From Dictyostelium discoideum (lineage: Eukaryota), in NCBI GenBank assembly GCA_000004695.1, contig CM000152.2, forward strand, positions 5,632,001 through 5,696,000: 64,000 nt of DNA, written 5' to 3'. Below the pieces are notes generated by a model, which was not told where the DNA came from, made no database searches, and was given only the letters and a program-made list of their open reading frames with translations. Below are positions 7,990-22,076 of the stretch, piece by piece. Position numbers and translations under genes: made by a program. The first letter of the stretch is position 1, and each line of letters begins with the position of its first letter.

Positions 7990-9144
<1,155 letters not shown>

Positions 9145-9698: not shown

Positions 9699-12600
9699 AT
9701 GTTTTTTAAAGGTAAAAAAAAAGATAAAGAAAAGGAAAAATCACATGGTAATATTGGAAATGTAATATCAGTTGAAAATAAAACAGGTAGTCAATCAAAT
9801 TTACATGTTGAACAAAATTTATCAAATGAAGATTTAAAAATTCAATTCTCACAATTACTCTATGAATTGGGTGTACCAGAAGCAAAAAGAGTTGAAATGG
9901 AGTTATGGTCAAATGATAAGAAATGGATGTTATTAGTTCAAAATAAAGATAAAATCAAAGAGAATGAAGAAAAGATGAAACAAAAAGGTTCACTCTATGA
10001 AACACCACAATTTTATCTTTCATTATTACGTGAAAATGCTTCAATTCAAAAAACAATCTCTGATCTTAAAGTATCGTTGGCTTCAAATAAATTATCTTGG
10101 ATTGATTCTTTCATTGGTTTATCAGGTTTTGATGAAATTTTAAAAATTTTTCAAACTTTTCAATTAAAACCAGAGTAAGTTTTTAATTTAAATTAAAAAA
10201 AAAAAAAAATAGTATAAATTATTAATTAATTTTTATTTTTTTTAAATTTTTTAAAAAAATAATAAATAGAAAAAATTCAATTGATTTTTTAATTTTATTT
10301 GATTGTGTTAATATTATAAAATCAATATTAAATAGTCAAAGTGGTGTTAAATCAGTGATGACAACATCACATACATTTAAAGTATTGGTATTATGTTTAG
10401 ATCAAAGTTATCCACCAGAATTAAGAAATGCAGTATTACAATTGACAGCAGCATTAACATTGTTACCAACGGTTGGACATAGTTATGTATTGGAGGCAAT
10501 TGAAAATTTCAAAGTTTCAAATCGTGAGAAAGTACGTTTCCAAACCATTATTGAGGGTGCAAAATCAGTATCAAACACTCAACTTCATTATGAATATTTA
10601 ACAAGTTTTATGAATTTAGTAAACTCTATCGTAAATTCACCAGCAGATTTACAAGTTCGTATTGGTTTACGTTCAGAATTTACCGCTTTGAAATTGATTG
10701 AATTAATATCAAACTCAAAGGGTGTCTCTGAAGATTTAGACACTCAAATCAATCTATTCTTTGAATGTATGGAAGAGGATAACGATGAAGTTGGTGCACA
10801 TTACAAAGAGGTTAACATTAGATCACCAAGTGAAGTTAGCACTAAAATAGATACCCTATTACAAAGTCATCCAGCACTTCATCATCATTTCATTTCAATC
10901 ATTAAAGGATTATATACTTTAGCTTCAACTCAATCTGATTTAGGTGGTTCAATGTGGAATATTTTAGATGAATCTGTTGGTTTAATCTTAAAAGATCCTT
11001 CAAAAGAATCTCAACTTGAAAAATTACAAAATGAAAATAATAATTTAAAATTACAATTATCTGAAATAAAATTAAATAATAGTAATAATAATAATAATAA
11101 TAATAATAGTAATAATAATAATAATGATAGTAATGTTTCAACTCCAAATATTAATACTGGTTCACCTTTACTTCCACCACAACAATATCAAGATCTTGAA
11201 CAAAAATTACAATTAACTCAAAATGAAAAAAATGAATCACAAAATAAAGTTAAACAGTTGGAATCAGAGATTAAAGGTTTAAATTCAACTCTTACAGGTT
11301 TACAATTAAAAGTTACAAAATTAGAAGCAGATTTATTAAGTGTTAGTGTTACAACACCACCTTCAGATACTAATGGTACTACATCACCACCAATCGAAGC
11401 ACCATCATCACCATCATTGGGTGCCCCACCACCACCACCACCACCACCACCTGCTCCACCAGTTTCAGGAGGAGGTCCACCACCACCTCCACCTCCACCA
11501 CCACCATCATCAGGAGGAGGTCCACCACCACCACCTCCACCACCATCATCAGGAGGTCCACCACCACCACCTCCACCTCCAGGTGGAATGAAAAAACCAG
11601 GTGCACCAGCTGTACCAAATTTACCACCAAAAAAATCATCAGTACCATCTGTTAAAATGGTTGGTCTTCAATGGAAAAAAGTTAATAATAATGTAATTGA
11701 AAATTCAATTTGGATGAATGTTAAAGATTATAATTTGAATGATCAATTTAAACAACTTGAAGAATTATTCCAAGTTAAAAAACCAACTGCAACTACTCCA
11801 ACTGCTCCAGTAGGTGGTGCAAGTAATGTAGCAGTTGGTGGTGGTAGTGGTTCAAAATCAATAGTATCAACACCAACTATCAGTATTTTAGATCCAAAAA
11901 GATCACAAGCAATTATGATTATGTTATCAAGATTTAAGATTTCATTTCCAGATTTAAGTAAAGCAATAACAAATTTAGATGAAAGTAAATTAAATTTAGA
12001 GGATGCAAAATCTTTATTGAAATTTGTACCAAGTTCAGAGGAAATTGAATTATTAAAAGAAGAGGATCCATCATGTTTTGGTAAACCAGAACAATTCCTT
12101 TGGGAACTTAGTAAAATCAATAGAATCTCTGAGAAATTGGAATGTTTTATCTTTAAACAAAAACTTTCAACTCAAATCGAAGAATTAACACCAGATATTA
12201 ACGCATTATTAAAAGGTTCAATGGAAACCAAAAATAATAAATCATTCCATCAAATTCTAGAGATTGTATTATCATTGGGTAATTTCATTAATGGTGGTAC
12301 ACCACGTGGTGATATTTACGGTTTCAAATTGGATTCTCTTAGTGGTCTATTGGATTGTCGTTCACCTTCAGATTCAAAAGTAACCTTAATGACTTGGTTA
12401 ATTCAATTCTTGGAGAATAAACATCCATCTCTTTTGGAATTCCATCAAGAGTTTACTGCAATCGATGAGGCAAAGAGAGTATCAATTCAAAATTTACGTT
12501 CAGAAGTTGCTTCATTAAAGAAAGGTTTAACATTGCTAACTAATGAAGTTGAAAAGAGTGAAGGTGCTTCAAAGACAATTTTAAGTGGTTTCGTTGGTAA

Positions 12601-13174
12601 ATCAACAGATGCCGTCACTTTAATTGAAAAACAATTTAATACCGCCCTTGAATCCTTTAATTCAACCGTACAATTCTATGGTGAAGATGTTAAAACTTCA
12701 TCACCTGAAGAATTCTTCCAACATGTTTCAAAATTCAAAAATGAATTCAAACGTACAATTGAATCAATTCAAAAGGAAAGAGAAAATGTTCAAAAATTAG
12801 CCGCTAGAAAGAAAGCTGCTGCTTCTGGTCCATCTGTGCCATCTGCTTCTGGTTCTTCAATTAATATCGCTCCAAAATCTGGTGTTTCTCCAATTACTCC
12901 AACTTCAAAATCTTCAATTTCAATCTCACAAAAACCACCACAATCAACTCAACCATCAATTTCTGTTCAGCAACAACAACAACAACACCATGGCGACGAC
13001 GATGATGATATACCACAAAATGGTACTTTTATGGATCAATTAATGAGTAAAATGAAAGGTGGTGAAGCAATTCGTGCATCTAGAAGAGCTTCACAATATG
13101 TTTTCACTCAAAATGGCGCTGGTGGTGTTGGTGCAATCGATGCATTAAATGCTGCATTGAAAAATAAAAAATAA
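9699..13174 (+). CDS. Diaphanous-related formin (GBD/FH3, coiled coil, FH1 poly-Pro, FH2, DAD). Two exons: 9699..10174 and 10336..13174. About 1104 aa.
   Basis: The N-terminal ORF joins the main ORF through a GTAAGT donor at 10175 and an AATAG acceptor ending at 10335, phase 2. The FH1 region is GAPPPPPPPPPAPP...SGGGPPPPPPPP. The FH2 core includes GNFINGGTPRGDIYGFKLDSL. The C-terminus has a basic DAD-like motif, DQLMSKMKGGEAIRASRRAS. Confidence 0.85.
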
Positions 13175-13325
13175 ATTAAAAAAACAAATATAATAAAAAA
13201 TAAAAAAAAAAAATAAAAAATTAAAAAAACAAAAATAATAAGAAAAAAATAAAAATAAAAAAAAATTCGCAAATATTTATTTATATAAAAATTAAAAAAA
13301 TTATGTTGTAATGTGTCACACAATA

Positions 13326-13469
<144 letters not shown>

Positions 13470-13910
13470 CAAATAACTCATTTGTACATTCAATGATATT
13501 TATAAAATTAATAGAACAACACGCTTAAAAAAAAACAAAAAAAACAATGTGTGTGTGGTGGTTATATTTAACCCCCCTCCCACTTAAAAAGACAAGAGAA
13601 ACTTTCTATTATGTACGACATACTTATTGACAACACAAATATTTCCATCGATTGAATTATATTAAACAAACTCTTCAAACACTCGCTAACGAAGTAATGT
13701 TAAACCCATACACAAAACAATGTTTTTTTTTAATTTATTTTTTTATTTTTTCTTAAAAAAATAGAAAAAAAAAAAATAAAAAAAAAGAGTATAAATAAAT
13801 TTTTTTTTTTTTTTTTTTTTTTCATTACCCTTAAAAAATAACAATTAACTTCTTAAACAAATCAAATAATAATTTATTACTTTTAAAAATAAAAAAAAAC
13901 TATCTAAAAA

Positions 13911-14187
13911 ATGTCAATTTTAAGTAAGTTAAAAAATATTATAAAAATAAATTAGATTTAAAATAAAAAAGTATTAATTAATTTTATAAAAAAAAAAAAA
14001 AAAAAAAAAAATAGAATCATTAACTTCAATTTCAAAAATTTCAAAATCATCAAATGATTCAATTTTAAATATAAATAATTCAAATAATTTAAATTCATCA
14101 AATCAAAACTCTAATAATGAAATCTCAAGATGGACTCCAATTTTTACAGTTATTGGTAGAGGTGGTAAAAATGTCATTGCTGCTTAA
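13911..14187 (+). CDS. Small novel protein, paralog A (about 60 aa). Exons 13911..13923 and 14015..14187.
   Basis: ATGTCAATTTTAA is followed by a GTAAGT donor and an ...AATAG acceptor. It translates to MSILK-SLTSISKISKSSNDSILNINNSNNLNSSNQNSNNEISRWTPIFTVIGRGGKNVIAA*. A paralog at 15342 shares the same intron position and C-terminal motif. Confidence 0.45.
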
Positions 14188-14215
14188 ATCAAATGTCATT
14201 GCTTCATTATAAAAT

Positions 14216-14255
<40 letters not shown>

Positions 14256-15194
14256 TTCATTTATTAGTTTGTACTTTAATGTATTTTTAATTTGAAGTCC
14301 GAATATATTTATTAATTTCCAAAATAAAAATTAAAAAAAAAAAAAAAAAAAAGTGTTTAATAAAATTAATTATTTATTATAAAATAAAAAAATTGGTTTT
14401 TTATTTATTTTTTTTTCAAAAAATATATAATCATATATTTTTTTTTTTAAATAATAATAATTTAATTGTGTTATGATAATTTTAGGTTTTTTTTTTTTTT
14501 TGAAAAAAGTAAAATTTAATAAACAGTTTTGTATATTGGACTTGGTTTCTTGAATAAATTTATAGTTAACTAAATCCAATAATAATTATTTTTACAAATC
14601 TCAAAGATTTTAATAATTACAAATTTTTTTTTTTTTTTTTTTTAACTTGGACATCATTTTTTCAACATATTATTTAAATTTTTTAATTTTAGTAACTACC
14701 TCGTATGTTTTTATAAAATTTTTTAAATCATAATTTTACATCAATGGTTCGATTTTTATTGAATGGAGTTATATATTTTTAAATAGTGTTTTAATTTATT
14801 GAACAGATTTTGTATTTTTGGATTGTTTTTTTGTTTTTTTTGTTTTTTTTTTTAAAAAAAAAAAAAAAAATTAAAATTCCTTTTTTTTAATTTTAACTTT
14901 CCAATATTGTTATTTCGTTTAAATGTAAAAAAAATGGTTTTAAGGTTTTTTTTGTAAATTATGTGTGTGTATAAATTTTTTAATTTTTATCACCCACCCT
15001 TATATAGTAATTAAAACAAATATAATAAATAAATTCTATAAAAAAAAAAAAAAAAAATCATTAAAAATTTTCAATAACATCATTAAATGAAAAAAGTCCA
15101 AAAAAAGAGTATATTTTAATTAATAAAGAGACACTAATCCATTCAAAACCAAATATTAAAAATTTGTTTTGTCAGTTTTTTTTTTTTAATAATT

Positions 15195-15241
<47 letters not shown>

Positions 15242-15341
15242 CAATAATTTATTTTATAAAATCTTTTTTTTATTTTTAATTATTATTATTTTAAAAAAAT
15301 AACAATAAATTATAAATTATAAAAAAAAACAAAATATAAAA

Positions 15342-15588
15342 ATGTCAGTTTTAAGTAAGTGCTACTTTTTTATAAAGTTTTTAAAATAAAAATATAATTA
15401 TTCTAATTAATTTTAATTTAGAAAATATAACCTCACTTTCAACTTTTTCAAAATCTTTAAATTTAAAAAAACAAATATCTGTTGACTTTTCAAACAATAA
15501 TTCCCTTCAATCATTTAATAATTATTCTAGATGGAGTCCAAATTATACAATAATTGGATATTGTTGTAAAAATATCATTGCTGCTTGA
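15342..15588 (+). CDS. Small novel protein, paralog B (about 58 aa). Exons 15342..15354 and 15422..15588.
   Basis: ATGTCAGTTTTAA is followed by a GTAAGT donor and a TTTAG acceptor. It translates to MSVLK-NITSLSTFSKSLNLKKQISVDFSNNNSLQSFNNYSRWSPNYTIIGYCCKNIIAA*. It shares with paralog A the conserved SRW(T/S)P..T(V/I)IG...KN(V/I)IAA-stop. Confidence 0.45.
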
Positions 15589-15630
15589 TCATATTTTTAA
15601 AAATATTTATCCTAAACCGAATAATAAAAC

Positions 15631-15689
<59 letters not shown>

Positions 15690-16018
15690 TATATGTATAA
15701 TTAAACTTTAAAGAAGTAAAATGATAGATTTGTAATCATGGTTGATATATAAAAAAAGAATATGATTTATTTATTTCATTATAATAAATATTAAAAATTG
15801 TTTAATACAATGTTAAAGGATTATTAATAAAATTAAGGTGCAACAATTTATAAATTTAAATATGAAATTATAAATATAAATTAAAATCTTTATTTAAGTA
15901 AATTTATGAATTCCTAATTTAATAGGAATCAATGAAAAAATTAGAATGTTATTGGTGTTGTGCAGTCTCATTACAAATATAAATAAATGTATTATTGGTT
16001 TAAGTTGATTATAAATCA

Positions 16019-17047
16019 TTATTTTAAATAATTACATAATGCGGTTTTGCAATTTGAATTATTGGTTTCACTTCTAAAGAATTTTAACAAGGTTGCATAA
16101 CAACACTCTACATTAGCAAAATATTTTCTATGGAATTTCTTGGCACTCCATTTTTTGTTGTTTTTTTTCTTGAATTTTGATTTTACCTTTGAACATCGTT
16201 CAGGAATGGGAATTTCAATTTTTATTATGTCTTGTTTACCATTTTGTTTTTTTCTTGACTTTTCTTCTACAATATTTATATGTTGAGTTGGGTGGTTCCA
16301 TTGATTGTAACAAAGGTCATATAATCTTTGGATATCACCTTTATACAATTTAGTACCTTTTGTAAGTTTAAAAGTTGATCTTATAGCATAATGATTGATT
16401 TTTGCTTCTTCTGAGGATGTTGTTGCATTTTTCAATACTTTAAAACCTAATGATTTGCTGTTAGAGGAATACATTATGTTATCAATCGAGTTTCTACCAG
16501 TTGTTGTTTCTATATCTTTATCATTTGCAAAAGAAATTTCATTTCCTAATTTCTCTTTTATTTGAGTTCTATTATGATTTATATCACCAGCAATTAAAAA
16601 AGGAATATTTTTTTCAATAAGTTTTGATACCAATCTTTCCAAAATAAAAAAATTTTCCGAAGCACTATTTTGTGATTTCTTTTGTGGTATATGGCAATTA
16701 ATTACTACAAAGTAAACGTCCTTATGTTTAAACGAAACAATATGGAGTCTTGTACCACTCTTAGCTTCAAATTCTTCAATAACTTTAAGACTTGAATTAT
16801 TATATATTATTCTTTATTGATTTTCTTTTTTTGATTTATCTCTTGAACCTGTTTTATTTTTTAAATTTCCATAGTTCTCGAAATCCTGAAAATCTCTATC
16901 AATCTCTTGTAAACATAATATATCATTTTTATTAAAATTATTTAAAAGCAATTCATCCTTTATTTGATTTTTGAATGTATTTTTAAGAGGTTTACCACCT
17001 TGGATTCCTGCATTTAAACTTCCTACAGTTACCCTGGCTGAATCCAT
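16019..17047 (-). pseudogene. Copy 1 of a tandem family encoding a stand-alone L1/APE-type (EEP) endonuclease domain protein. The frame is continuous except for one internal TAA.
   Basis: The translation LNAGIQGGKPLKN...ILCLQEIDRDF...VYFVVINCHIPQKK...IPFLIAGDINHNR...NSIDNIMYS...KINHYAIRS matches EEP catalytic motifs (QE, GDxN, SxDH). A single TAA at about 16798 interrupts the frame where copy 3 has CTA (Leu). No RT domain follows. Confidence 0.6.
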
Positions 17048-20899: not shown

Positions 20900-20918
20900 A
20901 ATAAATTTTCATAAAAAT

Positions 20919-20991
20919 GCCCGGCTAGCTCAGTCGGTAGAGCGCCAGACTCTTAATCTGGTGGTCGGGGGTTCGAGCCCCCCGTTGGGCG
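20919..20991 (+). tRNA. tRNA-Lys (anticodon CUU).
   Basis: GCCCGGCTAGCTCAGTCGGTAGAGCGCCAGACTCTTAATCTGGTGGTCGGGGGTTCGAGCCCCCCGTTGGGCG folds as a canonical cloverleaf. It has a 7-bp acceptor stem, a GCTC/GAGC D-stem, a CCAGA/TCTGG anticodon stem with loop CTCTTAA, and a GGGGG/CCCCC T-stem with loop TTCGAGC. A B-box-like GGTTCAATTC lies about 43 bp downstream, possibly an ex-B box. Confidence 0.9.
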
Positions 20992-21683
20992 AATTTTTTA
21001 TTTTAAAATTTAATAGTACACTGGTTCAATTCTTAACTTGGTCCCACCAATGGTTTAAGAGGATTGTGTAATTATTTACCTATTCAAAAAAAATAATAGG
21101 TCACACGAAAGAATTACCAAAAAGAACAATACAAAAAACAAAATCACACCTATAATACCTTCCAACATGAAAAAAGATCATGAAGTAAACATAAACTACA
21201 TTCATTCAAAATTTCATTAACAACATTTTGAATGTTCTATAAAGAAATAGACTATGACCTTTCTAGACATTTTGTATATATAATAGCATTGATTTTACAC
21301 CAAATTTAGATATGGGTTTGGAATAATATACAGCGATGACAAAATTCAGTTAGACTACAACACTATTCTCAAAAAATGTTAAAACATTAGACTATATAAA
21401 AAAAAAAAAAACTTTAAAATATCATCATCAAAAGATTCAATGTCAATCTGAAACAAAAATGAATACCTAAAACAAATTAAAAATATCTAAAATCAAATAA
21501 TCAAAGAATACTGTACCAATGATAGCGTACCAAATAGAGTAATTGTGGAATAAAAAAAATAAATCAAATTATAACAATATAACTAATTGTTGTTATTCAA
21601 AAAAAATTAAAATAATTAAAATAAAATAAAAAAACATTTATTATTGCAGAAGGTTTTAATACTAGCAAATAATTAATTAATAT

Positions 21684-22003: not shown

Positions 22004-22076
22004 CACCCATTGTGGGTCTCGATCCCACGACCTGCAGCTTAGAAGGCTGCCGCAATTCCAACTTTGCTAAACGGGC
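22004..22076 (-). tRNA. tRNA-Arg (anticodon UCU).
   Basis: The minus strand reads GCCCGTTTAGCAAAGTTGGAATTGCGGCAGCCTTCTAAGCTGCAGGTCGTGGGATCGAGACCCACAATGGGTG. The anticodon stem is GCAGC/GCTGC with loop CTTCTAA, and the T-arm is GTGGG-ATCGAGA-CCCAC. The acceptor stem has two G-U pairs. An ex-B-like GGTTCGATGTC lies about 35 bp downstream. ORF 21918..22115 overlapping it is spurious. Confidence 0.8.

Follow-up and report, generated by a model that had tools for sequence, protein, structure and literature searches.

Two tandem micro-genes of Dictyostelium discoideum with hssA-type gene architecture and a distinct C-terminal tail

The gene pair and its duplication

A stretch of 64,000 nucleotides (nt) of the Dictyostelium discoideum genome (assembly GCA_000004695.1, contig CM000152.2, positions 5,632,001 to 5,696,000 of the forward strand) contains two very small genes, here called gene 1 and gene 2, which lie on the + strand with their start codons 1431 nt apart. 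This whole stretch is referred to below as the window, and all coordinates are counted from its first letter. When the window is read directly and spliced in silico, each gene starts with an exon-1 open reading frame (ORF) of 13 nt, ATG TCA A/GTT TTA A, and is interrupted directly after codon 4 by a phase-1 intron (Table 1). The spliced product of gene 1 has 61 residues, MSILKSLTSISKISKSSNDSILNINNSNNLNSSNQNSNNEISRWTPIFTVIGRGGKNVIAA, that of gene 2 has 59, MSVLKNITSLSTFSKSLNLKKQISVDFSNNNSLQSFNNYSRWSPNYTIIGYCCKNIIAA, and the two share the C-terminal block SRW(T/S)P(I/N)(F/Y)T(V/I)IG(R/Y)(G/C)(G/C)KN(V/I)IAA. The architecture and promoter layout of both genes recall those of the hssA/2C/7E (sigN) class of developmental genes, and the relationship to that class is the main subject of what follows.

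The spliced models agree with the original prediction for this DNA, which had described paired loci about 1.4 kilobases (kb) apart, each with ATGTCA(A/G)TTTTAA, a GTAAGT donor and a phase-1 intron. Its donor coordinates, 13924 and 15355, are correct (the second ATG is at 15342), its C-terminal block matches both products exactly, and its estimate of about 70-90 nt for the introns compares with measured lengths of 91 and 67 nt. The peptides are somewhat longer than the 55 or so residues that it had given. For gene 1 the peptide predicted to be proteotypic is WTPIFTVIGR, and for gene 2 it is WSPNYTIIGYCCK.

The two genes are the only micro-genes with this architecture that a scan of the window for ATG, 10 nt and GTA[AT]G recovered. 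The scan returned a third match, at about 26648 on the - strand, whose spliced reading is 85 residues of ordinary, non-low-complexity protein (MLFYNVVLTGKRFGGKEAEKLQLVDK...); this ATG is probably an internal start of a larger ordinary gene and not a micro-gene.

Table 1. Positions of the two micro-genes, their candidate control elements and the neighbouring genes
Feature	Position	Strand	Sequence or remark
Gene 1 exon 1, coding part	13911-13923	+	ATGTCAATTTTAA; M S I L and first base of codon 5
Gene 1 donor	13924	+	GTAAGT
Gene 1 intron	13924-14014	+	91 nt, GTAAGT...TAG, phase 1, 5.5% G+C
Gene 1 exon 2, coding part	14015-14187	+	stop TAA at 14185-14187
Gene 1 candidate poly(A) signal	14323-14328	+	AATAAA, then A run 14333-14352; tentative assignment
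Gene 2 exon 1, coding part	15342-15354	+	ATGTCAGTTTTAA; M S V L and first base of codon 5
Gene 2 intron	15355-15421	+	67 nt, GTAAGT...TAG, phase 1, 12% G+C
Gene 2 exon 2, coding part	15422-15588	+	stop TGA included
Gene 2 candidate poly(A) signal	15623-15628	+	AATAAA, then 51-A run 15635-15685; tentative assignment
Gene 1 putative G-box pair	13548-13583	+ and -	TGTGTGTGTGGTGG on + (13548-13561); ACCCCCCTCCCAC (13571-13583), G-box on -
Gene 2 putative G-box pair	14962-14999	+ and -	TGTGTGTGT on + (14962-14970); CACCCACCC (14991-14999), G-box on -
Gene 1 core-promoter-like block	13784-13822	+	AAAGAGTATA / TATAAATAAA (13784-13799), then 23 T (13800-13822)
Gene 2 promoter-like block	15104-15241	+	AAAGAGTATA (15104-15113); 43-T run (15199-15241)
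Polyubiquitin ORF	7999-9144	+	five repeats, 381 residues; upstream of the pair
Formin gene	9699-13174	+	Drf_GBD, FH3, FH2; directly upstream of the pair
Next long ORF	16019-16642	-	downstream of the pair

Several lines of evidence bear on how the two genes are related. Within the window, a tblastn search with the gene 1 peptide found the gene 2 locus with E = 1.6e-9, and the reverse search gave E = 2.8e-9; the remaining matches were all to low-complexity stretches of poly-Asn or poly-Ser. Identity between the two proteins is 52%; both ends are kept and the middle has diverged. Compared with alignments of shuffled sequences, exon 1 (z = 6.7) and exon 2 (z = 11.5) align clearly, and no clear alignment was obtained for the upstream 300 nt (z = -1.3), the 5' leader (1.2), the intron (1.8) or the downstream 300 nt (2.4). 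The paralogs differ by two indels, of 15 nt and 9 nt, both of them in frame, and the ORFs terminate at the same aligned position. Furthermore, the motif RW.P..T.IG..KN.I occurs at these two loci only in the whole window, and the direct repeats between 13200 and 16000 that are not of low complexity consist of just three blocks spaced 1401-1431 nt apart, namely one at the ATG and donor (73% over 55 nt), one where exon 2 begins (75% over 44 nt) and one in the tail (79% over 61 nt). Because only the exons and three promoter islands, described below, are similar, and the introns and flanks cannot be aligned, the pattern is, as judged from the sequence, that of a tandem duplication which is old and whose exons have been under constraint, and not that of a mobile element or a simple repeat. 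A shared repeat had been named in the original prediction as an explanation that would undo it, and this is ruled out, since the similarity stops at the exon boundaries and the repeats are limited to the exon blocks.

A smaller and more local duplication is found at the end of gene 1, where an exact 13-nt direct repeat, AAATGTCATTGCT, occupies 14169-14181 and 14191-14203, 22 nt apart, and spans the stop codon. The final codons of gene 1 (K N V I A) have thereby been copied into the 3' untranslated region. A (TTTA)n microsatellite follows at 14219-14264, just past the stop, and very long A and T homopolymers flank both genes, the longest being a run of 51 A at 15635-15685.

Promoter islands, annotation and expression

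Three short islands lie upstream of both genes, in the same order and with the same period of about 1.4 kb as the exon blocks. They consist of a pair of inverted G-boxes, a TATA-containing 10-mer and an oligo-T run. The 10-mer, AAAGAGTATA, occurs twice in the window against an expectation of 0.23, once before each gene. At gene 1 (13784-13793) it belongs to a block that abuts the T run, and the ATG lies 88 nt past that run; at gene 2 it stands about 85 nt before the T run, which is followed by the ATG after 100 nt. The 10-mer and T run together may represent the TATA box plus oligo-dT arrangement of Dictyostelium promoters.

The G-box pairs lie about 363 nt before the ATG of gene 1 and about 380 nt before that of gene 2, and are separated from each other by 1414 nt, the spacing of the duplication unit. 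The matches to the consensus KGKGKGK on the - strand are GGGGGGT (13571-13577) for gene 1 and GGTGGGT (14992-14998) for gene 2. A + and a - match within 50 nt of each other are found only at these two sites in the window, where single matches are mildly enriched (33, with 21.5 expected). KGKGKGK is the GBF response element, and closely placed pairs of it have been described in sigN promoters (Vicente et al. 2008, PMC2257962). The upstream pairs are accordingly called putative GBF-type G-boxes here.

The product of gene 2 is identical to the D. discoideum AX4 protein DDB_G0282327 (EAL66285.1 / XP_640261.1 / Q54SP0), which is annotated as a 'hypothetical protein'. A literature search did not find DDB_G0282327 named in any main text. 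The supplementary lists of differentially expressed genes in Rosengarten et al. 2015 (PMC4403905, Additional file 7) do contain it, with three entries. One is in the sheet filter_UP, where tab counting and the empty columns point to the column UP_Hr20_gradual, and it also occurs in the sheet suspension_DOWN, where its column is among the last and corresponds to about 8 h. Under the identifier DDB0204183, gene 2 is also a node, with co-expression scores of 0.40-0.46, in a STRING cluster made up of late developmental genes (PMC12821622 S6). The gene 2 mRNA is therefore listed as developmentally regulated, with a late rise at about 20 h on filters.

The situation is different for gene 1. Its exact product does not occur in a collection of 15 billion protein sequences, and in a word-indexed search no protein shared even three 5-residue words with it. 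Because its product is in no searched protein collection, gene 1 is probably unannotated and apparently missing from public protein sets. The original prediction had looked to transcripts and to further paralogs for its confirmation; of these, a transcript of gene 2 exists, and no further annotated protein with the C-terminal block was found.

Relationship to the hssA/2C/7E family and rival explanations

The hssA/2C/7E (sigN) family comprises about 100 genes, and Vicente et al. (2008, PMC2257962) listed 96 sigN-like genes with proteins of <120 residues. In 89 of these 96, the first exon contributes a 13-nt ORF, followed by a short intron and by the rest of the ORF in exon 2; the products range from 43 to 118 residues and the introns from 38 to 147 nt (PMC2257962). 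The 13 bp first exon was also noted for hssA genes by Kin et al. (2018, PMC6198379). The intron position, which had been offered as a mark of the pair, is thus indeed common to both genes, but it is a hallmark of the hssA/2C/7E family and not peculiar to them (PMC2257962, PMC6198379). The pair has the 13-nt exon-1 ORFs, introns whose lengths fall inside the family range and products well within the size limit; gene 2 has a regulated mRNA, and the paired + and - KGKGKGK matches at 13548-13577 and 14962-14998 are predicted GBF sites.

Some likeness at the sequence level comes from the Pfam model of the hssA/2C/7E family, PF05710 ('Coiled'), which has a gathering score of 21.4 bits. This model aligned to gene 1 with 11 bits (E = 0.8), residues 1-35 lying in register with profile positions 1-34. 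As controls, a Dictyostelium dimigraforme member whose leader had been restored scored 83 bits over the whole profile, and eight composition-matched shuffles gave no match. The D. dimigraforme family gene has its intron at the same point after an M-T-I-F/L leader as the pair has.

The annotation of that D. dimigraforme protein (P0003, a 105-residue PF05710 protein of assembly GCA_054859025.1, contig JBTAPM010000036.1, locus L001, 10001-10727) is worth a remark of its own, since it looks mis-modelled. An hssA-type start at 10395, ATGACAATTTTTAG followed by GTAAT, combined with an acceptor at 10479, would restore the leader M-T-I-F that is usual in the family. The exon-1 ORF then has 14 nt before the GT instead of 13, owing to an extra T in the T run, and this might reflect a frameshift, an error in the assembly or a pseudogene.

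The best explanation of the pair is that it consists of tandem protein-coding micro-genes, divergent hssA-type developmental genes with a new C-terminal tail, and we consider this explanation probable, with room for doubt. The doubt comes from a number of results that weigh against it. Gene 1 falls below the PF05710 threshold and gene 2 has no match to the model, so that similarity does not place the pair in the family; a comparison of the pair with P0003 by hhalign was likewise not significant (probability 0.4%). An exhaustive HMMER search with a profile of the two exon-2 translations against 1.84 billion protein representatives retrieved no hssA-type protein. The Gly/Cys-rich, Cys-containing C-terminal region of the family is missing: gene 1 encodes no Cys and 3 Gly, gene 2 encodes 2 Cys and 1 Gly, and both products, rich in Ser and Asn, finish with a hydrophobic tail whose last residues are IAA. 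The list of 96 genes given by Vicente et al. has no chromosome-3 entry with 59 residues, exons of 13//167 and an intron of 67 nt, and DDB0204183 is absent from it even though DDB0204174-78 (sigN150/160/155/151/159) are listed; the gene 2 identifier was also not found in those supplements of Kin et al. 2018 that were searched. Transcript support is limited to gene 2 of the pair, and at the protein level gene 2 is missing from the proteins that made up the mass-spectrometry input for clusters 5-8 (PMC12821622). The NG86 comparison of the two genes (56 codons) gave 0.37 nonsynonymous (dN) and 0.48 synonymous (dS) substitutions per site and a dN/dS of 0.76, a ratio that is not decisive because, at conserved residues, the two copies share the same codons ending in A/T, which reflects a strong A/T codon preference and has probably depressed dS. 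Finally, a single-sequence AlphaFold2 model of the gene 2 product was uninformative (pLDDT 45.9). On its architecture, leader and promoter we accordingly class the pair as hssA-type, its membership by sequence not being demonstrated.

These results can be read in other ways. The pair may be a stand-alone orphan family of two members, protein-coding and real, that is unrelated to hssA/2C/7E and resembles it by coincidence or convergence. The exon-2 profile search fits such an origin, since it matched only DDB_G0282327 itself (E = 2e-28) and one plant leucine-rich repeat protein (E = 9e-4), the latter judged spurious. Metagenomes were scanned twice, with peptide patterns and with a degenerate DNA pattern of the tail, and neither scan found a relative. 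As far as these sequence searches reach, the tail SRW-x-P-x-x-T-x-I-G-x-x-x-K-N-x-I-A-A has no detectable relative among the 1.84 billion representatives. The sub-threshold PF05710 score, the negative hhalign result, the lack of a fitting entry in the published list, a composition without the family's Gly/Cys richness and the merely mild enrichment of KGKGKGK across the window all point in the same direction. An unrelated origin would nevertheless have to account for the coincidence of three independent family features, namely the 13-nt exon-1 ORF, the phase-1 intron after an M-[ST]-[IV]-L leader and the paired G-boxes, in the only micro-genes of the window with this architecture, as well as for an N-terminus of gene 1 that runs in register with model positions 1-34 where the eight shuffles gave nothing. 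We regard an orphan family as the less favored possibility, one that still deserves to be taken seriously. When hssA-type sequences were used as queries, tblastn against the window revealed no canonical family member, and none of the DDB0204174-78 sigN genes lies in it. In word-indexed protein searches, an HssA-like query that contained the published SigN group-2 peptide matched only P0003, and P0003 as a query found only itself.

A different challenge is that the transcripts rather than the peptides are functional, or that there is little constraint at the protein level and the conserved blocks reflect nucleotide constraint, codon bias or gene conversion. There is precedent within the family, in that a frame-shifted hssA construct suppressed a mutant phenotype just as the in-frame one did, a result interpreted as an action of the transcript (PMC6198379). 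The dN/dS of the pair, which is about 0.9 in the tail (dN 0.31, dS 0.35), and the absence of gene 2 from the mass-spectrometry input are in line with such an explanation, with the reservation that a low dS is expected from the codon preference. Simulations in which 24 AT-biased substitutions were placed at random in the 36 codons of two conserved blocks gave a divided answer: the count of identical residues was not above that under random placement (P about 0.3-0.4), and the observed BLOSUM62 scores were higher than the simulated ones (P = 0.02 and 0.05). The real replacements are unusually conservative (I/V, L/I, T/S, F/Y) and in this respect mildly non-random. Also telling against functional RNAs, both indels are multiples of three and the ORF ends are aligned, the exons have a G+C content at the coding level (22.5 and 22.8%, as against 5.5 and 12% in the introns), the folding of the spliced coding sequences is no stronger than that of shuffles (z = +1.1 and +1.3), and no Rfam family matched within 13000-16200. 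We hold this explanation to be unlikely, and yet selection on the proteins is only weakly shown; the statement in the original prediction that the genes are selected gains from the conservative replacements (P about 0.02-0.05) and loses from the dN/dS of 0.76 and the identity count. There is still less to be said for chance ORFs, or for copies of a dispersed repeat or of low-complexity DNA. Stop-free frames of 60-70 codons do arise by chance in this interval, from poly-A/T tracts read as poly-Lys or poly-Phe, and since they are not rare the length of an open frame proves nothing by itself. Such an origin is hardly credible, however, given that gene 2 is annotated and its transcript listed as regulated, that the similar parts are limited to exons and promoter islands, that the splice sites are canonical and identically placed, and that the window holds just two copies and the metagenome scans gave no match. 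The claim that these are real micro-genes and not chance ORFs thus holds: the gene 2 product is annotated exactly as predicted and is listed as differentially expressed.

The window as a whole is extremely AT-rich, with a G+C content of 12-32% per 2-kb bin, and has long homopolymer runs and mini-introns of the form GTAAGT...TAG. The pair sits in a 2.8-kb interval between the formin gene and the next gene downstream, which but for these two genes would count as intergenic. Farther downstream, a tRNA-Lys(CTT) gene (20918-20992, + strand) and a tRNA-Arg(TCT) gene (22004-22076, - strand) lie on opposite strands with about 1 kb between them.

A possible role for the tail, and comparison with known systems

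If the pair does consist of divergent hssA-type genes, it would be an offshoot of the hssA/2C/7E (sigN) class that has escaped listing, and we infer its descent along the following lines. The tandem duplication would have left each copy with a promoter of its own, made up of the inverted GBF-type G-boxes, the TATA-containing 10-mer and the oligo-T run, and the Gly/Cys-rich C-terminal half of the class would have been swapped for a different tail of 20 residues. The product would be a small basic protein with a largely disordered Ser/Asn-rich body and an amphipathic N-terminal segment, whose short, beta-prone hydrophobic tail may mediate self-association or the binding of a partner in late culmination.

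Several properties of the two products underlie this model. Both are basic, with net charges of +4 and +5, and consist of Ser, Asn and Thr to 39-46%. Propensity scales indicate an N-terminal segment with a helical hydrophobic moment, and the hexamers of highest beta-propensity, IFTVIG in gene 1 and YTIIGY in gene 2, both fall in the tail. Each of them is followed by a G/C-x-x-K turn and then by N-[VI]-I-A-A (NVIAA or NIIAA). Other roles for the tail were rejected on reading its sequence: it ends in VIAA or IIAA, and the Cys of gene 2 is replaced by Gly in gene 1, which speaks against a CaaX lipidation signal; it is not SKL-like, as a targeting signal might be; and its length is too small and its charge too high for a membrane anchor. 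Because the AlphaFold2 model is so poor, the beta-tail mechanism is purely a matter of inference. Function may also be hard to reveal by mutation, as it may be redundant in this class: deletion of all 13 sigN group 1 and 2 genes caused no defect, and neither did single knockouts of six other members.

A bolder proposal is that the two genes make up an unrecognised family of micro-proteins in which the promoter, leader exon and intron of the hssA type have been joined to a new beta-prone tail of 20 residues that serves, in late culmination, as a self-associating or anti-aggregation module of the SRCP1 kind. We would give this proposal only a small chance; if true, it would be a clear case from nature of one tail module being replaced by another, in a gene class that is lineage-specific and evolves rapidly.

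The practical value of these results lies mainly in annotation. Gene 2 was already known as an annotated gene, and the intron feature is a known hallmark of the class; what is new is the apparently unannotated paralogue of DDB_G0282327 at 13911-14187, which is intact and has its own promoter, together with the realisation that the tail is a divergent variant. Both genes are tied to the hssA/2C/7E-type class by their architecture and by the layout of their promoters, so that DDB_G0282327 is no longer an isolated 'hypothetical protein'. The pair is also a small case of lineage-specific diversification of micro-genes, in which leader exon, intron and G-box promoter have stayed the same and the C-terminal module is different. 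No long-standing question is opened by this, and a Dictyostelium specialist would not be surprised.

Among other small proteins of D. discoideum, the developmentally regulated short proteins described in PMC8327917 are similar in size to the products of the pair, and the exon-2 profile search matched no D. discoideum protein of these or other classes besides DDB_G0282327. A functional analogy is offered by SRCP1 (serine-rich chaperone protein 1), a D. discoideum protein of about 9 kDa in which a short, beta-prone 'pseudo-amyloid' segment at the C-terminus carries the activity (PMC8741877, PMC8554618). SRCP1 belongs to the same broad class of small, Ser-rich, Dictyostelium-specific proteins, and its layout resembles the Ser/Asn-rich body and IFTVIG or YTIIGY tail of the pair. 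It showed no similarity in the exon-2 profile search, so that the likeness is one of description, and its C-terminal module can serve as a model for the action of the tail by analogy only.

The comparison with the hssA/2C/7E (sigN) class itself brings out both differences and parallels. The products of the pair are shorter than those of the class, most of which have 75-100 residues, and end in the unique SRW.P..T.IG...KN.IAA tail where the class has its Gly/Cys-rich half. Unlike class members, the pair stays below the Pfam threshold and outside the published 96-gene list, and the peak of gene 2, apparently at about 20 h, is later than the induction of sigN groups 1 and 2 at 10-12 h. On the other hand, the class and the pair have in common a two-exon structure with a 13-nt exon-1 ORF and a short phase-1 intron, products of <120 residues, and an arrangement in tandem or in clusters of paralogues with paired GBF-type G-boxes and, for gene 2 of the pair, a regulated mRNA. 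The leaders are alike as well, M-[ST]-[IVL]-[LF] followed by a Ser-rich segment in the class and M-S-I/V-L-K-x-[IL]-T-S-[IL]-S in the pair.

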